Virus record (IMG/VR): IMGVR_UViG_3300032053_005343
Span: 73,012 to 137,011 of that record
DNA: 64,000 bases
Reading direction: 5' to 3' (one strand)
DNA from: a virus
Part shown: in pieces, positions 3,355-61,072 of the stretch
How positions within the stretch are numbered: the stretch's first letter is position 1
Layout of the letters: every line of letters begins with the position of its first letter
Made by a program: the position numbers and the translations under genes
Notes under the pieces: model-generated
What the model was told of the DNA's origin: nothing
Databases searched by the model: none
What the model saw: only the letters and a program-made list of their open reading frames with translations

Positions 3355-5710
3355 TTATTTCGACATCTTCTTGGATTTCTATTTTACTATCAACTTGATT
3401 AATGAGATCTTGCGCCAACCAAATCTTATCCAATGCCACAATTCCCAATAGATCGAACTTGACGCAACCCATAGCCTCCGCAGAACCCATTTCAAGTCCG
3501 ACAATTCTTGTTTTATTCTTCGGGTCGAAAACAAGAGGAACCAGTTCGCTAATTGGAATGTCTGCTATAACGAGACCTGCTGCATGTTTTGACTGACTTT
3601 TCTTCGTTTTTTCTAATCTTATCCCCTGATCAAACAATGGTTTATACCATTGATAATATTCTTTAATTTTATCTATATTATCAATACTCCAGTTTAAAAT
3701 TCCGTAATCATTATTTTCTGTTTCTTCTCGCATTTTTTGTAAATCGTCTATAATAGAGGCTTCATCAGGCATCAAAGAAGTAATTTCATTACATAAATCA
3801 AACGGAGTTATAGAAATTTCATCTGGATTTTTGCCCTCTTTTGTTGCTTTTACTTTCATTAAATGTTTTACTAAATCTGGCTGGGCACGAAACACTTCTT
3901 TAAGGGCTGCTTTTCCCTGGAGTCTACCGAAGGTCACCATTTGATTGACTCGTTCGGAACCGTACTTGTTTATTAAATATTCGACTACTTTCTCGCGGAA
4001 GACGACCGAAAGATCGAGATCAATGTCTGGAAGACTAATATGACCTGGATTTATTTTAACGGGTTCGCCTGGGTCTAATTTGCAATGCATTCTTAATGCG
4101 TCCATAATATGTGAATTATTTGGATTTGGAAATTCTAATCCTAAAACCTGATCTTCCGAGGACGAACACATAGTTTGATTATTCTTAAATATTTCTAATA
4201 TGTATAACCACATTTTCGGATTATTTTTATCTATCCAATCAGCTTCTTCTTTAAGTAATTTTTTATTACTTATACTTCTATATTTTAAATTATATTGAAT
4301 AATCAAATTTTTAATGGTATTTCTGGCATCATCAATTTTTTCTTGAATTATAGAATCGGAATTATCTGATAACCATTGCATAAAAGTTATTTGCCCGACA
4401 TCAAAGTGTGGGGGAATATTACGCCCGCTATTATAAAATCTTTGAAAGTAGAGATCGTATTCAAGAGGATCAATTTGGGTTATGTTTAATAGATAATTGA
4501 TCAAAGACCCAGCCCCCGATCCTCTTCCCTTTCCTCTTGGTTTGTTGTTTTCGTCAACGAATTTGCAAATATCATAAACTATTAAAAAATAATCTGCCAA
4601 TTTAGCTTCTTTGATAACATCCAGTTCATATAGTAATCTTTCCCAATAAATTTTCTTTTTTTCTATTGGGAAATTTATTAATTTCTTTTTTGCTCCTTTT
4701 ATACATAATTCTTTTAAATAGTCGTCGGATGAAACTTCGTTTGGGGTTTTATATTTAGGCAAACAGGGTCTTCGCCCCAATTTCGTTGGTTGGATCATGT
4801 CGGAAATTACAAGGGTTTGTTCAATTTCTTCTTTTGTGTAGTGTTCGGCCATTTCCTCTGGTGAAAAGATATAAAAAGTATCCCTAAAGAAAAAAGACAT
4901 GGTATCAGAGCCTTCTGATTTCAACCTAGCCTGTTCTTCTGCTGTTGTGTGTAATTGACTATAAAGAAGTATTCTATGGTCTTCTACCTGTTCTTTTCTC
5001 GCATAATGGGCATCAAGAGTCGATACCGACCGTATATTTAAGGCTTTTGAGATCTCACGAAGACATTCTACTGCCACCTTCTGCGCAGGCATTCCCTCCT
5101 CCTGCAATTCGATAAAATAATTTTCCTTGCCAAAAATTGATATATACCTAGAAACAATTTCATCAGCTATATTTCGCCAATTGGGTTTAAGTAATTTTTT
5201 AACCTCATCTATATTTTCGGTTTGTTCACCAATTAGACATGCCTTCCCAACATCTTCAAATAACGATTTGGAAAGTTCGCCTATGATACAGCCACTTAAA
5301 CATATTAAATTTTTATTTTTTGTGAACAGTGATAAATTATCTACAGAAATTCTAGGCTTCCGGTAAAAGTTTTGAGGTAGGTTGGTATAACTAACTAACG
5401 ACATCAAATCCTTAATACCATTTTCGTTTTTTGCTAATAGTGTAAGGTGATTGTGGGATTTGTTTGTATTGTCTTTAATAGTTTGATCTAATTTACTCGT
5501 GTAAATCTCGCAGGCCACAATTTGCTTGATATCATATTTTTTACAAGCTTTTTGAAAATCTATTATATGAGACACGTTGCCGTGATCGGTTATACAACAA
5601 GCAGGACAACCAATTTCTTTTGCTCGTTTTGCTATTTGTTCCGGAGAACAAAGACCGTCTAAAATTGAATAATCCGAGTGGAGATGGAGTGGGACATATG
5701 TATTACTCAT
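3347..5710 (-). CDS. dnaE: DNA polymerase III alpha subunit, N-terminal part (PHP + palm/thumb); C-terminal domains absent
   Basis: LHLHSDYSILDG, ITDHG, GRGSGAGSL, SLPDIDLD, SKHAAG, VKFDLLG, then stop about 30 aa later. Confidence 0.92.
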   Translation of the reverse strand: MSNTYVPLHLHSDYSILDGLCSPEQIAKRAKEIGCPACCITDHGNVSHIIDFQKACKKYDIKQIVACEIYTSKLDQTIKDNTNKSHNHLTLLAKNENGIKDLMSLVSYTNLPQNFYRKPRISVDNLSLFTKNKNLICLSGCIIGELSKSLFEDVGKACLIGEQTENIDEVKKLLKPNWRNIADEIVSRYISIFGKENYFIELQEEGMPAQKVAVECLREISKALNIRSVSTLDAHYARKEQVEDHRILLYSQLHTTAEEQARLKSEGSDTMSFFFRDTFYIFSPEEMAEHYTKEEIEQTLVISDMIQPTKLGRRPCLPKYKTPNEVSSDDYLKELCIKGAKKKLINFPIEKKKIYWERLLYELDVIKEAKLADYFLIVYDICKFVDENNKPRGKGRGSGAGSLINYLLNITQIDPLEYDLYFQRFYNSGRNIPPHFDVGQITFMQWLSDNSDSIIQEKIDDARNTIKNLIIQYNLKYRSISNKKLLKEEADWIDKNNPKMWLYILEIFKNNQTMCSSSEDQVLGLEFPNPNNSHIMDALRMHCKLDPGEPVKINPGHISLPDIDLDLSVVFREKVVEYLINKYGSERVNQMVTFGRLQGKAALKEVFRAQPDLVKHLMKVKATKEGKNPDEISITPFDLCNEITSLMPDEASIIDDLQKMREETENNDYGILNWSIDNIDKIKEYYQWYKPLFDQGIRLEKTKKSQSKHAAGLVIADIPISELVPLVFDPKNKTRIVGLEMGSAEAMGCVKFDLLGIVALDKIWLAQDLINQVDSKIEIQEDVEINE

Positions 5711-6361
5711 TTATATTGTACCATAAATTTTAATAGGAGTTGTTAGTGATTTTTCTATTGACCAATTTAAAGTATGTATTCTAGTATATAATGTTCCATA
5801 ATTAATTTTATATTCTATTGACCAAGCCTTTAAGCATTGAGTTTTACCTTTAAAAGTATAATTGGTATTTGACCGAGTATTCCTTGCTTGAACTTGATTT
5901 GTCGTAAATCTACAGTTTTCTTTATAATACCCCTTATTGTTGTCTATTCTATCTAAAGAAAGACCCGGTGGACATTCGCCCATGTCTTCTAAGAAATTTT
6001 CAAAAGACCCTCCTTTTTTGGGATTCCATCTGTCGCAAACTGTAATTCCTCTTCCATAATAATTCTCATCATTTTTATTTTTGCATCTTCTTATCATATG
6101 ATACCATATGCTGTGTGTTCTTGATTCTTTGCCATTTCTAGCATGACCATGTTTCAAATTACAATCTTTTTTCAAACATCCGCAACTTTGGGTAGGCTTA
6201 GATTTATTTGTCAAATGAAATCCAGCAATAATTTTTTCATTACCACAGTCGCATTTACACAACCACCTTGAATTTCTAAATTTGCCATTGTCTTTTCTTT
6301 CTTTAACGACTAATTTCCCAAATCTTCGTCCAATTAAATCAATAAAGTTATGTGACATCAT
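5711..6361 (-). CDS. HNH-like endonuclease, DLxG-RFGxL/CxCxCG family
   Basis: DLIGRRFGKL, WLCKCDCG, YYGRGITVC, LDRIDNNKGYYKENC. Confidence 0.85.
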   Translation of the reverse strand: MMSHNFIDLIGRRFGKLVVKERKDNGKFRNSRWLCKCDCGNEKIIAGFHLTNKSKPTQSCGCLKKDCNLKHGHARNGKESRTHSIWYHMIRRCKNKNDENYYGRGITVCDRWNPKKGGSFENFLEDMGECPPGLSLDRIDNNKGYYKENCRFTTNQVQARNTRSNTNYTFKGKTQCLKAWSIEYKINYGTLYTRIHTLNWSIEKSLTTPIKIYGTI

Positions 6362-47729: not shown

Positions 47730-48015
47730 TATAATATTTACCCCCGCATTGAAAATTTTCTATCTCCCATTCGACGCACTTATCTCTAATCTTATTTTGA
47801 TAGACAATTTCATTTGTTTGTGCGTTTATAATTTCCCAATATTGTTTTTCTTGATTAAACAAAATATGAGATGCTCTACGGATATTTGTTACTAAACCTA
47901 GATCATATAAATCTATAAAATCATTATAAATCGTTGATATATTGCCTTTTTCATTTATTTCCATAATAGGTATTTGCATTATTATTTTCCTTTCGTCAAA
48001 TCGTTGAGGCAACAT
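47722..48015 (-). CDS. Hypothetical protein (type often found beside DUF2997)
   Basis: G.ISTIYND..DL..LG....RRASHI.F....W. Confidence 0.6.
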   Translation of the reverse strand: MLPQRFDERKIIMQIPIMEINEKGNISTIYNDFIDLYDLGLVTNIRRASHILFNQEKQYWEIINAQTNEIVYQNKIRDKCVEWEIENFQCGGKYYNE

Positions 48016-48221
48016 CTCAATTCGTGGGAATCTAGATCTTTTGCATCTCTCCCATTTATTTTTACATTAACGATATCGTTTGCACCATTTAATTCTACAT
48101 ATACTCTTCTGTCGCTTATTGTAGAACAGGGCCATTGCGCATTAGGTCTGCGACTCCATTTAAACGTGTCGTTTTGGGACAACCACACCCTCGTTGTGTT
48201 TCCTATTTTTTTAATTTTCAT
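47982..48221 (-). CDS. Hypothetical protein
   Basis: 79 aa ORF. Confidence 0.5.
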   Translation of the reverse strand: MKIKKIGNTTRVWLSQNDTFKWSRRPNAQWPCSTISDRRVYVELNGANDIVNVKINGRDAKDLDSHELRCCLNDLTKGK

Positions 48222-48541
48222 AGAATTATTTTCCTCAATAGTTTTTTGGTTTGTTCTGCAATAATTTTTTGCTCAAACTCGGCTTTATGCTCAGTACATG
48301 TATTGTTTTTTATATTACACATTACAAAAAATGTTTGTGGGCCAATCAAATCTATGCCATTTTCACGAGCCTTTTTTGCCTTAGTTGATTGGCTATTCAT
48401 ATCCATTATAACTAGTATAGTTGTTTTATTAGTTATAGACTTTGTGACCGATGCTCCAGCCTTGATAGCTATGTCTGTCATTTGATTACGAGATATTGGA
48501 CCTTTCCCGGTGAAACAGAATACTATATCTTTATTTAACAT
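48218..48541 (-). CDS. Stand-alone BRCT domain protein (NAD-ligase/RFC type)
   Basis: FCFTGK..SR......GA.V..SIT.KT..LV......S.K..KA...GI.LI. Confidence 0.85.
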   Translation of the reverse strand: MLNKDIVFCFTGKGPISRNQMTDIAIKAGASVTKSITNKTTILVIMDMNSQSTKAKKARENGIDLIGPQTFFVMCNIKNNTCTEHKAEFEQKIIAEQTKKLLRKIIL

Positions 48542-48550
48542 ATTTAGCCT

Positions 48551-50617
48551 CTATATCAGAATAAATTCACACCCCCTCTGAAAATCTTGAATGTTATCAA
48601 AACCGGCATAACTTATCGCGCTTCTTAATGCCCCCGCATACCTATTTAAAAGTGATTCTACTGGTTCTCCTATGTCAAGATGAATTAATTTGCCCTCTGC
48701 CGAAGTTCCTGGTTTTAAACCACCCTTCCATTTATTCTGGACATATTCACTATTGCCACACCACGTATATTTATTGTTTCTTCTTACACATAATATTCCA
48801 TTAGGAACCTCTGCGCAATACACTTTGCCACTATAATCTATAAAACTATAGTGTTTTGGGAGGATGGTGGGGTTATGCCAATATTTACCTACATAAACAG
48901 AAAATGAATCATATTTTCTAACGAAACTTTTCCCATTAATTTCTCCTAAAGATCCCTTTGGATGATTCAAGTGAATTGTTGGAGTTAATCCACATTTTAT
49001 ACATATCTCTGATATATCGTCTATAAATTTAGTGGAAGAACTAGTTATAGAATTTCTGTTTTTACAACCGTCACCGAGAAATATTGAATTTATTAAAATC
49101 TCTAATAATTTAGTCGGTAGATTTTTAATTTTTTTCGGAATAAATTTTTCATGAGCCTTCCCAAATTTCATCAAATAACTGCAAAGGGGCATGTTTTGTA
49201 TTGTAAGTTCATAATTTTTATTCCTTTTTCTTACAAAGGAACCAATATTATATTTTCTTAATAAGGTTACATAATGATTTATCAATTTTTTATTATTATT
49301 TGAAATACTTATGGAATACACAAAATGATTAGGATTATAACTGATATGTTTTTTTGATTTTGATATTCTTTTATTTGCCCACCCTTCTGCTAACCAGAAT
49401 CCAAAAAAATCAATCCATTCTTCTGTCAGAAAATTTGTTCCTATTTTCTTATATTTATTTTTATATCCAGAGACAACATCGGGTATCTTAAAAAATTTGG
49501 AATATTCTCCCTTCCATCCGCATATTTTTTGATACTTAAAATTTTCCTTACAACACCGTTCCGCCTTAACGAATTTAAATTTTTCTTTATATCCATCCTT
49601 AATTCTTGCTCGTTTAGCAACATACATTCTGTGATTTGGTGTTACTAATAAATCAATAGCTTTATGATTTATATTTATCATTTCCCCGTTATAATTATAA
49701 TTAAAAATATTTGTTGGTTTTTGAAATTCCATTAATTTTGTTTCTGTATTTAAAGTTGCTAAATCGTCAGATAATTTTATTTCTGAAAAATTTTTCCATC
49801 CATTGATGGTTAATATTTCTGTGTCGTCGCTATAACATGACATGCCCGCCAGAATTTTCTTCTTTATCCCATCAATTTCTATCGTTTCTGAAGCACTCTC
49901 TGGGCATCTGGCGAATATACTACCAGCCATAGCACAACTAGCTCCTGCCCCGATAGCTTTGGTGAAATCGGCGGGGCAACGAATGTTCCCGTCACTAATG
50001 ATTGGCATACCATATTTTTGTGAGATTTCTTTTAAATCATAGATAGCAGAAAATTGATTTTTTGTACAACCAACTACTGTCGCCGTCGAACAGGAATTAC
50101 CACCACCTATGCCGATTTTTATTGCATCTACATAATCATTGAACATCCCTATCATATCAGGATTAATAGTATTTCCGGCGACAACTTTTATTGTTGGATA
50201 GAATTTTTTTATATGTTGGCACATTTGTAATGCATATTTATTAAAACCATGAGCTACATCGACGAAAATAATGTTAGATCCAGCTTTTATTAATTTTTCA
50301 ACCAATATATAATCTGAATCTTTTATTCCAATGGAAACCGCAACAGAGGGAATTTCCTTTGTTATTTTTTTTGTTTCCGATATATAATCATCTGTATTTG
50401 GAAAAGCTCTGTGTAAAACCCCCATAGCCCCAAGCCTATAAAGCCCTATCGAGAATTCCGCATTCGTGACTGTTGACATATTCGCTGCCAAAAGGGGAAG
50501 TGGACGGATTACTCCGCGAATTATCTCGCTTTTTATTTTTGTGTCAAGCCGACTTTTGCAAATATTCTCTTTTTGATAAATTGCTATGTCAGAAAATTTA
50601 TATGATTTTTTAAACAT
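48551..50617 (-). CDS. guaB: IMP dehydrogenase/GMP reductase (no CBS domains) with intein
   Basis: AANMSTV, VDVAHG, VAGN, IGIGGGNSCST, ISDG, AGS, GMS|intein|S, SAEG, LRSAISYAG. Confidence 0.85.
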   Translation of the reverse strand: MFKKSYKFSDIAIYQKENICKSRLDTKIKSEIIRGVIRPLPLLAANMSTVTNAEFSIGLYRLGAMGVLHRAFPNTDDYISETKKITKEIPSVAVSIGIKDSDYILVEKLIKAGSNIIFVDVAHGFNKYALQMCQHIKKFYPTIKVVAGNTINPDMIGMFNDYVDAIKIGIGGGNSCSTATVVGCTKNQFSAIYDLKEISQKYGMPIISDGNIRCPADFTKAIGAGASCAMAGSIFARCPESASETIEIDGIKKKILAGMSCYSDDTEILTINGWKNFSEIKLSDDLATLNTETKLMEFQKPTNIFNYNYNGEMININHKAIDLLVTPNHRMYVAKRARIKDGYKEKFKFVKAERCCKENFKYQKICGWKGEYSKFFKIPDVVSGYKNKYKKIGTNFLTEEWIDFFGFWLAEGWANKRISKSKKHISYNPNHFVYSISISNNNKKLINHYVTLLRKYNIGSFVRKRNKNYELTIQNMPLCSYLMKFGKAHEKFIPKKIKNLPTKLLEILINSIFLGDGCKNRNSITSSSTKFIDDISEICIKCGLTPTIHLNHPKGSLGEINGKSFVRKYDSFSVYVGKYWHNPTILPKHYSFIDYSGKVYCAEVPNGILCVRRNNKYTWCGNSEYVQNKWKGGLKPGTSAEGKLIHLDIGEPVESLLNRYAGALRSAISYAGFDNIQDFQRGCEFILI
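48752..49837 (-). mobile_element. Intein with LAGLIDADG endonuclease in guaB (362 aa, ends Gly-Asn)
   Basis: AGMS|CYSDDTEIL..VTPNH..FFGFWLAEG..FLGDG..VYCAEV..WCGN|SEY. Confidence 0.9.
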
Positions 50618-51243
50618 TATTTTATTTTTCTCCTGATGGGTTCGTTTAATGCTCTATCAATATTCCAACCCCTCCTTATTCTTGTCCGAAGTGTATCGTA
50701 AGGAAGATTATATTCTTCGGCCCAGGCTGCAATACATTGTGTTTTACCTTTATATGTTAACATATGGCTATCTCTTCTGTTGTAATTATTTTCTTTATTG
50801 GTGCTCCATCGACAATTCTTTTTATGATATCCTTTATTGTTATCAATTCTATCTATCTGATGCTTCTTGCTTGGCGGTAGTCCCATGTCATTAAGAAAAT
50901 TAATAAATCCGTTATTTTTAGGCAACCACCTTTTGCAAACCGTAATGCCTCTATTTCCGTAATCTTTATATCTTGGATTTTTGGGGTTGGTACACCTTTG
51001 AATCATAGATTTCCATATTTTATCAATATGAGAATTGCTAAGCCCATGTTTGGTCATTATATCTTTGTGCAGGCATCCGCAACTTTTTGAATCTCCTGTT
51101 CTTAAACTATATCCGTCTATATTTTTTATGATTCCGCAACTACATTCACATTTCCATCTAGATTTCTTTTTGTTGGTGTTTATTTGTTTAAGAATTGTCC
51201 ATCTTCCAAATTTTAATCCCGTTAAATCAATAAATTTGCCCAT
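50617..51243 (-). CDS. DLxG-family HNH-like endonuclease
   Basis: FIDLTGLKFGRW, CECSCG, IDRIDNNKGY. Confidence 0.85.
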   Translation of the reverse strand: MGKFIDLTGLKFGRWTILKQINTNKKKSRWKCECSCGIIKNIDGYSLRTGDSKSCGCLHKDIMTKHGLSNSHIDKIWKSMIQRCTNPKNPRYKDYGNRGITVCKRWLPKNNGFINFLNDMGLPPSKKHQIDRIDNNKGYHKKNCRWSTNKENNYNRRDSHMLTYKGKTQCIAAWAEEYNLPYDTLRTRIRRGWNIDRALNEPIRRKIK

Positions 51244-51359
51244 TACCTATATTCCCTTATTTCCCCTCTATTTTTTGCGTCTAGCCTACTATTACAAATA
51301 TTTTCTTTTTGGCAAATTGCTACGTCCTTAAAATTATATGATCGGACTAAATCGCTCAT
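51243..51359 (-). pseudogene. Stranded duplicate of the guaB N-terminus (38 aa)
   Basis: MSDLVRSYNFKDVAICQKENICNSRLDAKNRGEI vs guaB MFKKSYKFSDIAIYQKENICKSRLDTKIKSEI; 19/28 identical. Confidence 0.85.
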
Positions 51360-51364
51360 TTATT

Positions 51365-52036
51365 TTATTCCTTGATATGTTTCCATGTTATTTTATGTGT
51401 CAATAACCAAATTGTTTTATAGCTGGCTCCATATTTTATAACTAATTCCTTATAAGACAATCCTTTTTTATGATCTCTTATAATGTCTATCGCTGTTTTT
51501 TCGTTTATTGTAGCTGCTCCGTGCTTACTTCCTGGTTGACTTGATTGTGGTTTCGGGATACCAATCTGTGCTTTTCTAATTTTTTCCTTAACTAAACTGG
51601 GTCGGTGTCGTCCCTTTAAAGCAATACTTAATTTTAATTTATGTTCTTTGGTGAGCCTTGTTCCTTTTTTAGAATTGCTTATTTTTTCTTTTGTTGCTCT
51701 TGTATGATTCCGGCCCAACATTGGAGTAATAGTATTTTTAGAAATATTGAATCCAATATTTGAATTATAACATTTTGTTTGGTCTAACCACAATTGTTCT
51801 TTTATTGATAATTTTTTTATATCATAAACAATTTCAATTATTTCAAATTTAAAATTTTCTTTTCCATATTTATTCCATGAGTTTTGTAAATAGGTATTGA
51901 TATGATTTCCGTTTTTTAATCTAGATAAATGAAACTCGAACCGTCTTTTAAGATTAATAGCACTTCCTATATAAAATTTTCCTGTTGATGAACAGGTTAT
52001 TCTATAAATACCAGAGATATAACCTTTAATAAACAT
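51365..52036 (-). CDS. GIY-YIG homing endonuclease (NUMOD3 + HTH)
   Basis: SGIYRITC..FYIGSA; GRNHTRATKEKIS. Confidence 0.9.
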   Translation of the reverse strand: MFIKGYISGIYRITCSSTGKFYIGSAINLKRRFEFHLSRLKNGNHINTYLQNSWNKYGKENFKFEIIEIVYDIKKLSIKEQLWLDQTKCYNSNIGFNISKNTITPMLGRNHTRATKEKISNSKKGTRLTKEHKLKLSIALKGRHRPSLVKEKIRKAQIGIPKPQSSQPGSKHGAATINEKTAIDIIRDHKKGLSYKELVIKYGASYKTIWLLTHKITWKHIKE

Positions 52037-52245
52037 AAAATTTTAACATACACTTCCTTTGCTTATATGACGACCATTTGTGATTTTAAATTTTGGATTA
52101 CAGACAAAATCTTCAATAGGTATTCCTTCGGGAATAAAATCTTCCGATAGTTCGCAAAACATAGTAAAAATTGTTTCCTTATCTCTTATTAGTGTACAGT
52201 ATCCCTCGCTGTTAAAATATAATATTTTTTGCATTTCATTTTCCT

Positions 52246-52659
52246 TTATCTATATCCATGAATTGTTACCCTCTGTTTACCGTCTGGTAATTTGGTTCTA
52301 GATACTTGTCTACCTTTCTTTTCTTGTTGAAGGCGAATTGCTTGGAAAGCGTAGTTTTGTTTCAACTTATTCGTCCAGTGTTCCGAATATTTAGTTTTGT
52401 CAAATTCTGATATAATAGCCGTATAGGTATTATCTTCGTTTTTAATAAATCCCAGGTCGTTTGAAGACATTCCCACATTTTTACGACGAATAATAATATT
52501 AGCTTTATCTTGTCTTAAATCTCCCCTATATCCGAAAAGATGTTGTGGTTCATCATAAATTTCTATTTGTTCCCTTTGCCACAAGCCAGTTTCCATCAAA
52601 GCAAAAATTAAAGCTTCTTGATTTTTCATAGCAGTTTCAATTTGACAATAAAGGGACAT
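52246..52659 (-). CDS. DUF1257-family protein
   Basis: MS....I.T......L..AL; LFGYRGD.R...A.IIIRR......SNDLGF; LKQNYA. Confidence 0.8.
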   Translation of the reverse strand: MSLYCQIETAMKNQEALIFALMETGLWQREQIEIYDEPQHLFGYRGDLRQDKANIIIRRKNVGMSSNDLGFIKNEDNTYTAIISEFDKTKYSEHWTNKLKQNYAFQAIRLQQEKKGRQVSRTKLPDGKQRVTIHGYR

Positions 52660-53303
52660 TATTTTTTTCTCCTATTATATTTTCTTATTGGTATTGTTAA
52701 AGCTTCTTCCATAGAATATCCGTATGTATCTATCCTTGTCATTATCGTATGATAATTTAGATTAAATTTTTTGCAATGATCTTTTAAACACAATCCATTA
52801 ATGTTTATGTTAGTTTTCATGTTTCTATGTTGTTGTTTGTTTGTTGCCCATCTCCAGTTACCTGGAAAATACCCCTTGTTATTGTCTGTTCTATCAAGAG
52901 ATTTTTTATATGGTGGATCGCCAACGTCTTTATAAAAATTTTCAAATCCGTTTTTCTTATTTGACCATCTTTTACAAACTGTAATTGGAGGGATTCTTCC
53001 TCCATAGTTCTTGTATGCTTTATGATTTTTGTCGTTACATCTAGAAATCATACTCGACCATATATAATAAATTTTAGTTTTGCATTTTTGGTGCTTGGTT
53101 CTATTTTTATTTCTTAATATTGTTTGTTCTTTACTAAAACATCCACAGCTTTTTGTGTGTTTACTTTTTAAATCACCGGATGTTACTTTTATTTCTTTTC
53201 CACAATCACACAAGCATAACCAAAGTATTTGGTTGGATCTATTTCTACCGTCCTGTTTAATAACGAGAAGTCTTTCAAATCTTTGCCCGATTAAATCCAT
53301 CAA
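52659..53303 (-). CDS. DLxG-family HNH-like endonuclease
   Basis: DLIGQRFERL, CLCDCG, LDRTDNNKGY. Confidence 0.85.
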   Translation of the reverse strand: MMDLIGQRFERLLVIKQDGRNRSNQILWLCLCDCGKEIKVTSGDLKSKHTKSCGCFSKEQTILRNKNRTKHQKCKTKIYYIWSSMISRCNDKNHKAYKNYGGRIPPITVCKRWSNKKNGFENFYKDVGDPPYKKSLDRTDNNKGYFPGNWRWATNKQQHRNMKTNININGLCLKDHCKKFNLNYHTIMTRIDTYGYSMEEALTIPIRKYNRRKK

Positions 53304-53654
53304 TTATCTCCGTCCCGGATCAGTTAAGCTTTTACCAAAACAACCACTTACCGGCTCAAACATTGGCATTGGTATATTTTTGTTCATCGCTTTTTCTATT
53401 ACGTGAGCCAAAAATCCTTGGCCGACCGGACTTCCTAACCACTGAATTAGTGTCGCTGCAAGTTTGTAATTTTCATTAGATTGAATTTCAACATAATGTT
53501 CATCTACATTCCCTGAAAACAAATGATCCAAAGTACAATTTCTTACAGCTAATTGGGTGTTTTCTTCTTGCCAACATTCGGCAAACAATTTTTCTAAGGG
53601 TTCTCTATTGTATCTATGAGAAGAAAATCCTTTGAATTTATTTAAAATTTTCAT
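53304..53654 (-). CDS. Hypothetical phage protein
   Basis: PLEK.FAECW; AATLIQWLGSPVGQGFL. Confidence 0.6.
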   Translation of the reverse strand: MKILNKFKGFSSHRYNREPLEKLFAECWQEENTQLAVRNCTLDHLFSGNVDEHYVEIQSNENYKLAATLIQWLGSPVGQGFLAHVIEKAMNKNIPMPMFEPVSGCFGKSLTDPGRR

Positions 53655-59648: not shown

Positions 59649-60294
59649 TTTTAGTTCTCCAATTATGGCGGGTGTCTGGTGGAATTGTTAGGGCTTCTTC
59701 GGGAGTCCAACCGGCGGCTAATCTGCGTCTAATAGTAGCCTTATGGATTCCGGTTATTTCTGATGCTTCTGCTATACAGATTTCCTTTCCTTTGTATGGT
59801 ATTAAATGATTTGATCTTCTGTTTCTTGCTTGTTCTTTTCTCGTAGATAGTCTACAATTTTTCGGAGAATACCCGTTTTTTAATTTATTGTTATTTATTC
59901 TGTCTAGTTCATATCCTTTAGGAATTTCCCCAATATCCTCTAAGAAATTTTTGAATCCTCGCCCATCTGGTTCTGTCCATCTTGAACAAATTGTAATACC
60001 TCGACCACCATAATTTTTATATGATTTATGAAGAGGGTTTTCACATCTTTGTTTCATACTATCCCATGCACTAAATGTTTTTGAGGATATTTTATATTTA
60101 GTATGCCCATGTTTAAAACGTAAACATCCACAGCTTTTAGTTTTATTGGTTTGTAGACTATTGCCACTAATTATCTTTTGTTTTCCACAATCACATAAAC
60201 ACAACCATTGTGAGCGATTATATTTATTGTTTTCTAGTCGTTTGATAACTATTAAATTTCCAAATCTTTCACCAATTAGATTTAATACTTTCAT
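59626..60294 (-). CDS. DLxG-family HNH-like endonuclease
   Basis: NLIGERFGNL, CLCDCG, LDRINNNK..GYSPKNC. Confidence 0.85.
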   Translation of the reverse strand: MKVLNLIGERFGNLIVIKRLENNKYNRSQWLCLCDCGKQKIISGNSLQTNKTKSCGCLRFKHGHTKYKISSKTFSAWDSMKQRCENPLHKSYKNYGGRGITICSRWTEPDGRGFKNFLEDIGEIPKGYELDRINNNKLKNGYSPKNCRLSTRKEQARNRRSNHLIPYKGKEICIAEASEITGIHKATIRRRLAAGWTPEEALTIPPDTRHNWRTKNELPRSK

Positions 60295-60536
60295 TGATTT
60301 ACACTTTGATTTTGTTTACTATATAGAAAATCTCCAGCATCTCCCAGGTCGTACCCTAATTTTCTCAAAATACTGCTGCCTTTGCGCTTGCGATCGCTTG
60401 ATGCCTTTAATTGATTAGACATCGCGCCAAGAATTCCTTTGTTAATTTTTACAATCACTGTTCCCTCTTCCATATTTCTTTCGAGAATCTCATAAGCATG
60501 ATTCACGTCTTTGATTTGAGTCGTCTCTTCTGTCAT
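60291..60536 (-). CDS. Hypothetical protein
   Basis: AAGGAG RBS, ATGA overlap. Confidence 0.55.
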   Translation of the reverse strand: MTEETTQIKDVNHAYEILERNMEEGTVIVKINKGILGAMSNQLKASSDRKRKGSSILRKLGYDLGDAGDFLYSKQNQSVNQ

Positions 60537-60812
60537 CGGATCACTCCTTCTAAAAAAAGTAAATGAAAACCAACTACGTTACACCATATTTATATTTTTA
60601 TCGTGTCTTTAACATTGGTTGTATATGAACAGATTTAGGATTCATTTCTAGATCATACTCGTCTATATCTCTTCCGGTGCCGGGGCCAAAATTTTCTTTT
60701 AATTCTTTTCTGTTTGGTTTGTTATTTTTATCACATTGTATAACGATCACTTCGTCTATTCCACTATATACTGCCAACATACTATCTCTCCTTTAAAAAA
60801 CATCAACATTAC

Positions 60813-60819
60813 ATTATAC
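60813..60819 (-). promoter_or_regulatory. Candidate -10-like promoter element GTATAAT (also at 18563, 28600, 29179, 34216, 41819)
   Basis: ATTATAC on + strand in or next to intergenic gaps just upstream of minus-strand starts. Confidence 0.4.
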
Positions 60820-61072
60820 GAAAACTTATTGTATAATTCGAGGAAATTTTATTATTAGGACGTTCATCTCAAATATTCTTTTAATTCTTCCTCGTTTTTT
60901 CCAGTCGGATCAAAACCCTCTTGAATTTCGCAAAGAATTCGTTTTATTTTATTAGCTTTTAACATTACCACCTGTGTTGGAGTTAACGGGCTTGATTTTA
61001 TTTCTGGAATACTTTGTATACATTTATTGTCTTTGAAATAGCACCAGTAAAACATTATTTAATTCTCCAAAT

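Follow-up and report, generated by a model that had tools for sequence, protein, structure and literature searches.

The closest described counterparts of the locus reported here are mobile open reading frames (mORFs) of fungal mitochondria. In Glomus, a foreign C-terminal segment together with an endonuclease open reading frame (ORF) is inserted in atp6, atp9, cox2 and nad3, and the stranded native C-terminus matches an element-free relative at 91-98%, compared to 64-81% for the inserted copy; a hybrid atp6 gene of Allomyces macrogynus is cited alongside (PMC3630166). The present locus belongs to a phage represented by the IMG/VR virus record IMGVR_UViG_3300032053_005343 (137 kb, estimated completeness 82%), whose right-hand 64 kb (positions 73,012 to 137,011) form the window, i.e., the whole stretch of 64,000 nucleotides (nt) that was analyzed, with a G+C content of 31%. 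Within this window, a gene of the IMPDH/GMP-reductase family, here called guaB, has its 5' end in two diverged copies, and the free-standing gene of an HNH-family homing endonuclease is placed between them. One copy, the head, is joined to the working gene, while the other, the stump, is stranded in front of the endonuclease gene. We consider it likely that the HNH gene, together with a head of one allele type (type A), entered a gene of another type (type B) after base 103, through the repair of a double-strand break in which one side was joined by homology and the other illegitimately. The 38-codon ORF containing the stump is probably the original 5' end of a B-type allele that was already preceded by a GIY-YIG endonuclease gene.

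The phage case resembles mORFs in its working, but stands outside the mORF group since it concerns a 5' end and a phage gene. As in the mORFs, an endonuclease ORF is found between two diverged copies of a gene terminus, of which the incoming one is joined to the gene and the native one stranded, with neither intron nor intein involved; again as there, the stranded native copy resembles the endonuclease-free relative far more than the incoming copy does (PMC3630166). However, mORFs replace the 3' end, and the new C-terminus often continues in frame into their ORF, whereas the 5' end is affected in the phage and the endonuclease gene is a separate ORF before the new head, with stop/start overlaps of one base. 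Being placed in front of the head, it must supply the start codon and the ribosome-binding region of guaB. An earlier reading of the window from its letters and ORF list alone (hereafter the original prediction) implied a new principle of gene invasion; this principle is already mirrored by the C-terminal duplications of the fungal mitochondrial mORFs (PMC3630166), and the implied novelty does not hold. The gene itself needs no splicing to remain intact, since the endonuclease gene brings a full substitute start along.

Endonuclease insertions are also known to split genes, an example being the ribonucleotide reductase gene 'in pieces' of a T4-like phage. Such split genes share with the present locus an endonuclease gene inside a conserved metabolic gene without an intron, but both of their pieces are needed and nothing is duplicated, while in the present locus nothing is missing from the downstream gene, which makes the upstream piece redundant.

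Further points of comparison are provided by T4-type phages (PMC2988022). Like the free-standing Seg and Mob genes, the HNH gene is situated in between other genes, and some close relatives carry it while others lack it. Intron-less homing of the T4 type co-converts neighboring gene sequence (PMC2988022); here, a hybrid pattern is found, in a gene family that is mosaic. Ordinary intron-less homing has homology on both sides and leaves no stump, whereas one junction of the present insertion lacks homology and lies inside the target gene. When the T4 td intron had homology in one exon only, one-sided illegitimate break repair with microhomology junctions was described, and such repair was proposed as a route of these elements to new sites (PMC2988022). 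The present locus agrees with this one-sided homing in having long homology downstream, inside guaB, and none upstream. The td case was however based on engineered substrates and an intron, while a natural product and a free-standing gene are considered here, with a repair route deduced from the end product. By title and abstract, with subscription journals outside the scope of the search, no 5' gene-end duplication flanking a phage endonuclease gene was found in the literature; the word stem 'duplicat' occurs twice in PMC10448857, each time with reference to repeats within endonuclease genes, and is absent from PMC2988022.

The genes around the locus are encoded on the minus strand of the window, in the order DUF1257 gene, 63-amino-acid ORF, GIY-YIG gene, stump, HNH gene and guaB. 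The features are:

48218..48541, minus strand: stand-alone BRCT-domain protein of 107 amino acids, directly downstream of guaB, conserved in the related loci L019, L093 and L094
48551..50617, minus strand: working IMPDH/GMP-reductase-family gene (guaB), ORF of 688 amino acids, 326 without the intein; PF00478, E 4e-56
48752..49837, minus strand: LAGLIDADG intein of 362 amino acids inside guaB; matches to PF14528 and PF03161
50417..50617, minus strand: head of type A at the start of guaB, covering residues 1 to about 43-67, the probable co-converted stretch; delimited by runs of informative sites
50617..51243, minus strand: HNH-family homing endonuclease gene, free-standing, 208 amino acids; PHROG 374 'HNH endonuclease', E 3.8e-69
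51243..51359, minus strand: 38-codon ORF made of stump and 13-nt linker, its TAA overlapping the ATG of the HNH gene; from the ORF list and the sequence
51244..51256, minus strand: 13-nt linker from the end of guaB similarity to the HNH start codon; read from the sequence
51257..51359, minus strand: stump, i.e., stranded type-B head (bases 1-103), the probable old 5' end; matches type-B heads and a contig of run X6
51365..52036, minus strand: GIY-YIG/NUMOD3 homing endonuclease gene, 223 amino acids; PF01541 (E 1.3e-11), PF07460 and PHROG 314 'homing endonuclease'
52043..52659, minus strand: conserved upstream context, consisting of the 63-amino-acid ORF and the DUF1257 gene; from a domain search and syntenic relatives

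The coordinates of the 38-codon ORF and of the HNH-like gene, and the position of the latter exactly between the two copies, had been given by the original prediction and were confirmed in the ORF list and the sequence. The three central ORFs (38, 208 and 688 amino acids) are all on the minus strand, the neighboring ones share one base each, at 51243 and 50617, and both junctions read TAATG. The linker probably came in with the endonuclease gene, and together with the last bases of the stump it contains an AAGGG-like ribosome-binding stretch.

The stump is a true copy of the guaB start. Its peptide agrees with residues 4-32 of the enzyme at 19 of 29 positions and obtains a BLOSUM62 local score of 100, while the shuffled 38-mer (n = 2000) reached a mean of 27.6, with a standard deviation of 3.9 and a maximum of 48; the match, for which a comparison with shuffled sequence had been proposed, is significant. 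The pair was also recovered by BLASTP in the genome's own ORF set (E 5e-8) and by self-BLASTN of the whole genome (81.7% identity over 71 nt, E 1.8e-11), and 66 of 87 bases agree between stump and resident head (76% identity, 24% divergence). The 19 identical residues had been counted correctly before, although over an aligned length of 28 instead of 29. In addition, the original prediction had spoken of many synonymous differences; such changes are present, but among the 29 aligned codons, 14 of which are identical, 5 synonymous differences stand against 10 non-synonymous ones.

No comparable footprint was detected elsewhere in the genome. If the two flanks of each endonuclease gene are compared with each other, the DNA score amounts to z = 22 for this gene and to z <= 2.3 for the other 34 of the 35 tested, none of which has similar flanks within 300 nt. 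Being the sole such case among 35 endonuclease ORFs, the stump is an exceptional product and not the normal insertion mode of the family. Similarly, an all-against-all BLASTP of 1267 ORFs of at least 25 amino acids yielded no other short ORF that matches the end of a neighbor.

To place both copies among natural alleles, we searched with the N-terminal extein of guaB, which led to 349 relatives, and 26 sequences were inspected. Moreover, 160 loci encoding relatives were gathered, with some contigs counted twice, being in both collections, and a TBLASTN search with both heads detected a head in 51 of them. Two natural head types were found. Type A begins with MFE+SY.F... and has ...DVKIESEI (P0001, P0002, P0004, P0005); type B is two residues longer, begins with M..L[IV]RSY... 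and has ...DAKIEGEI (P0006, P0008, P0012, P0016, P0018), while P0020 has the type-B start only. The head of the resident gene is of type A and that of the stump of type B: the stump shares 25-26 of 34 residues with the B heads of P0006, P0012 and P0016 by hand count (26 with the latter two), as opposed to 19 of 29 with the resident head. Since each copy matches a different natural head type, their divergence of 24% is old allelic divergence and not the result of recoding after a duplication. Consequently, the second head is not 'recoded', as had been assumed, but a natural allele type, which also occurs in L093, L092 and L134, relatives without an upstream endonuclease gene. Two separate heads were present in only one of the 51 loci with a detectable head, the near-identical contig L011, and none of the HNH-free relatives among these loci carries both copies. 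The HNH gene is missing from the syntenic relatives L012, L019, L091, L093 and L094. In L093 and L012, which are free of endonuclease genes, DUF1257 is directly followed by guaB, while in L019, L091 and L094, likewise endonuclease-free, an ORF of about 90 amino acids lies in between; judged by this synteny, the DUF1257-guaB order is the older one.

The most direct evidence was provided by an allele without the HNH gene. The runs containing the stretch are sediment metagenomes, and Logan contigs from four of them (X5, X6, X7, X8), each covering part of the stretch, were aligned to the window. Record 13 of run X6, a contig of 1132 nt with a depth of about 5, differs from the window at only 2 of 933 nt over 51272-52204, a span that includes the 63-amino-acid ORF, the entire GIY-YIG gene and the first 88 bases of the stump, and then continues for 199 nt that are unlike the window. 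Read on the gene strand in the frame of the stump, the 30 letters past the alignment give ..K IEGEIMRGVT, comparable to ..AKIEGEIIRGV.. in P0006. Going by this contig, the X6-type population has the same GIY-YIG gene followed by an intact B-type gene without the HNH gene. Record 11 of the same run spans the HNH/guaB junction, and both allele forms thus co-occur in one sample. The stump, closest to this element-free allele, had been proposed to be the old resident start, and the X6 contig with its identical order of upstream ORF, GIY-YIG gene and head bears this out: of the two copies, the one beginning with MSDLVRS.. is the older, resident start. The similarity of stump and uninvaded allele stops after gene base 103 (window 51257), close to the predicted insertion about 100 nt into guaB, and the HNH start follows after 13 bases. 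Compared to the X6 allele, an A-run of the stump is longer by one A, and another A is lost at a distance of 9 nt; these paired 1-nt changes turn ..KIEGEI.. into ..KNRGEI.. (IE to NR) and restore the frame. An exact search of IMG/VR with 47 nt of the stump returned only the near-identical contig, and no pure type-B locus emerged when IMG/VR and JGI metagenomes were scanned. A search of short proteins, for which the P0016 B head served as query, led to a single partial B-type protein, P0121 (98 amino acids), which differs from the X6 allele.

If the stump is the old start, the working gene should be a hybrid, as predicted by a replacement of its 5' end. We removed the intein at the borders given by P0003, aligned the 326-amino-acid product with 29 relatives and considered as informative those sites at which exactly one of an A-type/B-type pair agrees with the window. 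With the pair P0004 and P0012, the first 12 sites (to residue 67) all favor A and the next 9 (residues 73-94) all favor B; when compared with P0006 and P0008, the switch falls at residues 43/45. When the order of the sites was shuffled 20000 times, a leading A run followed by a B run as long as observed never arose for these three triplets out of the 8 tested, and two further triplets gave P values of 5e-5 and 4e-4. By these alignments, the resident gene is chimeric, being A-like to about residue 43-67 and then B-like to about residue 96, which is the hybrid expected from the proposed 5' end replacement. This pattern lends good, but not conclusive, support to the view that only the head, up to about codon 43-67, came with the HNH gene.

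We therefore favor the following scenario for the reading given at the outset. A mixed infection would have brought the B-type genome together with a relative carrying the HNH endonuclease gene in front of a type-A allele. The B-type gene would have been broken slightly past base 103, with the HNH enzyme as the most likely cutter, and the downstream broken end resected to about codon 43-67. This end could then have invaded the homologous gene of the donor, with leftward copying that took in the A-type head and, beyond it, the endonuclease gene. As the two genomes differ upstream of the gene, the copied strand would have been joined to the other broken end without homology. The product would be the order observed: GIY-YIG gene, old B head of 103 nt, 13 nt, HNH gene and a new A head fused to the resident body.

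Several points weigh against this reconstruction. The supposed donor, an HNH gene in front of an A-type gene without a stump, was not found in any collection scanned. The continuation of the X6 contig was read over 30 of its 199 letters, and the body of that allele lies outside the comparison with the gene of the window. Three of the 8 triplets gave no clear signal (P 0.014, 0.021 and 0.40), the A/B pairs were picked after the alignment had been viewed, and beyond about residue 100 the gene is mostly A-like again. The gene family is mosaic in general, and the hybrid pattern may be older than the event. Finally, the nuclease activity of the HNH protein is predicted, and an alignment of 9 paralogs shows no invariant histidine in the DRIDNN block.

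Other origins of the same layout can be envisioned. The roles might have been reversed, with the GIY-YIG gene and the B head copied into a genome that had the HNH gene in front of an A-type gene, or illegitimate recombination might have occurred without a cut by the HNH enzyme. Genes of both endonucleases are situated at the guaB start, and the break might be due to one or the other, while the presence of both forms in X6 (records 11 and 13) makes a mixed infection plausible in either direction. However, an A-type recipient predicts an A-like body behind the head, whereas residues 45-96 or so are B-like, and the near identity of the upstream context to the X6 B-type allele fits a B genome as recipient. 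Because the insert of roughly 0.8 kb has B-type-like DNA to its left and right, we regard these alternative movers as quite unlikely. It is very improbable that the gene start was duplicated in tandem and both copies then diverged in place: direct orientation and a distance of 0.7 kb would suit such an origin, but the copies correspond to two distinct natural allele types, X6 contains an allele whose B head leads into an intact gene, and a DNA divergence of 24%, compared to 0-2% for the surrounding DNA between populations, cannot have built up in place. Even less credible is a chimeric assembly of two co-occurring strains. Although both allele forms are present in the X6 sample, the longest exact run common to both heads is about 9 nt, and an assembler thus had no shared word by which to join two strains. 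Furthermore, contigs of three further runs bridge the junctions with zero mismatches (X5 record 3, 50643-51772; X7 record 22, 51062-51302; X8 record 26, 51144-51294), and an independent IMG/VR contig (L009/L011) has the same layout at 100% identity, with all four proteins 99.9-100% identical.

Compatible with the insertion of HNH gene and A head into a B-type gene, though doubtful, is the idea that the stump was kept by selection as a leader ORF that feeds ribosomes to the HNH start. Its frame is open from the ATG to the TAATG overlap, the two 1-nt changes cancel each other's frameshift, and no terminator-like site was found on the minus strand between stump, HNH gene and guaB. In addition, of the 13 members of the HNH family examined, at least 9 have an upstream ORF that terminates on the endonuclease start or a few bases away, while the 3' ends of several members overlap the following gene in an A-rich ...AAAATAATG or ...AAATGA; translational coupling looks like a habit of this family, into which a stump ORF ending on TAATG would fit. 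However, the first 1-nt change alone would still stop the frame 3 nt before the ATG, leaving the second unneeded for coupling, and the AAGGG stretch about 10 nt upstream could be the HNH gene's own ribosome-binding site. The sole other copy of the stump (L011) is 100% identical, which makes selection unmeasurable, and none of the listed runs containing the stretch is recorded as RNA. Promoter-like sites were uninformative (27 against 24 +/- 4.5 in shuffles). One might go further and speculate that replacement of a 5' end is a regular strategy of free-standing phage endonuclease genes instead of a repair accident, which we think unlikely. The mobile cassette would then consist of an endonuclease gene and a substitute gene start, able to invade the first codons of a conserved gene in whichever relative, despite unrelated upstream DNA. 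In this speculative case, the head swap might remove the cassette's own target, and the stranded head might serve as a translated leader that delivers ribosomes. Equally tentatively, the frame-restoring 1-nt changes could be a trace of selection on that leader.

The assignment of the 208-amino-acid protein itself requires some caution. Besides PHROG 374 it matches four more HNH PHROGs, and its membership in a homing endonuclease family rests on this PHROG annotation, as neither Pfam nor NCBIfam gave a match. R132, N135, N143 and N155 are invariant in the DRIDNN...N block of the 9 paralogs, and H66 is invariant elsewhere. An AlphaFold model reached a mean predicted local distance difference test (pLDDT) value of 73.8; a Foldseek search of the PDB with this pLDDT-74 model returned nothing at E <= 0.001, and a VIA-wide fold search gave a best Z of 5.2, restricted to a small N-terminal barrel. 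Its best match to an HNH enzyme was PacI with a Z of 3.8, too weak to count. From sequence and model, membership in the HNH superfamily is not secure. The family is the commonest of the genome, with 13 further ORFs matching at E <= 1e-45. At gathering score, no Rfam family and hence no group I or II intron was found in the entire window, and an intron was rejected as an explanation. The HNH gene is a free-standing ORF that has a start and a stop codon of its own, and the splice-free, non-intron insertion had been foreseen correctly.

The invaded gene deserves comment as well. The closest full-length relatives of its product are 72-73% identical, about 326 amino acids long and intein-free. The NCBIfam GMP-reductase models align end to end with both the 326-amino-acid protein and P0004, e.g., residues 7-326 of P0004 with positions 10-335 of the 347 of the GMP reductase profile, while all scores remain below the curated cut-offs; 'guaB' is thus a loose label for a gene of the IMPDH/GMP-reductase family. 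The product lacks a CBS insert. P0003, a protein without the intein, agrees with the exteins at 100% identity, and in an X7 contig the stretch 48750-49838 is absent, its place being taken by 3 different letters. Taken together, the intein is polymorphic in the population.

Other relatives point to repeated visits to the same gene start. In L119, a member of the window's HNH family is located directly upstream of guaB, whereas in L014-L017 and L085 (about 5300-6100) a different HNH protein with the motif HHI[ND]G..DN is fused in frame to the guaB start. In L119 (4388-5999), guaB has only the tail of such a fused-type HNH as N-terminal extension, with the window-family HNH in front, which suggests layered invasions at one gene start. 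As far as gene content can tell, the guaB start is a hotspot for such elements, visited by at least three endonuclease families, in addition to the intein in the gene. In run X7, two contigs match the guaB body and diverge toward the 5' end at window positions 50313 and 50372, about codons 102 and 82; at 50372 the diverging letters contain a stop and, after it, a new ATG in the guaB frame. A third allele may thus exist, in which a further insertion splits guaB or gives it a new start. Upstream of DUF1257, an HNH paralog (window 52659..53303, minus strand) is whole in the window but comprises 93 amino acids in L011 (3411-3692), which is otherwise 97-100% identical and lacks the genes at positions 126315-127825 of the whole record. 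The truncated paralog and the missing genes reveal that endonuclease content differs between near-identical genomes.

The genome at large carries an extreme load of such genes. About 35 free-standing endonuclease-family ORFs, belonging to linked HNH-like, NUMOD-type and GIY-YIG families, were counted in 137 kb, and they mostly overlap their neighbors by one to four bases; several intein-bearing genes exist besides. A distant BLASTN search of 48000-53500 against 50,697 annotated phage records gave no match. Just upstream of the window and in its first 1.1 kb (G000:C1:67688-74120), three paralogous genes of 255-267 amino acids have endonuclease genes between and beside them, at 68476-69171, 72817-73359 and 74110-74667; the first two of these paralogs have 65-70% DNA identity to each other. 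Two further paralogs (311 and 332 amino acids) adjoin an endonuclease gene at 60266-60838. Such paralogs may be whole-gene duplications linked to endonuclease activity. No internal repeat was detected in DnaE (window 4037..4417, minus strand), as a self-BLASTP of the 787-amino-acid protein at E <= 10 gave the self-match only.

Taken together, the locus offers a natural before-and-after pair, with the invaded allele in the window and an uninvaded one with the same neighbors in a sister sample, and the value of the finding lies in this unusually direct side-by-side evidence. The pair narrows the probable cut site to about bases 103-200 of the B-type gene. For annotation, it follows that short unannotated ORFs beside endonuclease genes may be stranded gene starts, which are usable to date and orient endonuclease invasions. 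If the insertion took place as we propose, a free-standing endonuclease gene can enter a genome that lacks upstream homology and leave the host gene unbroken, which would be one route by which phage genes become allele hybrids.

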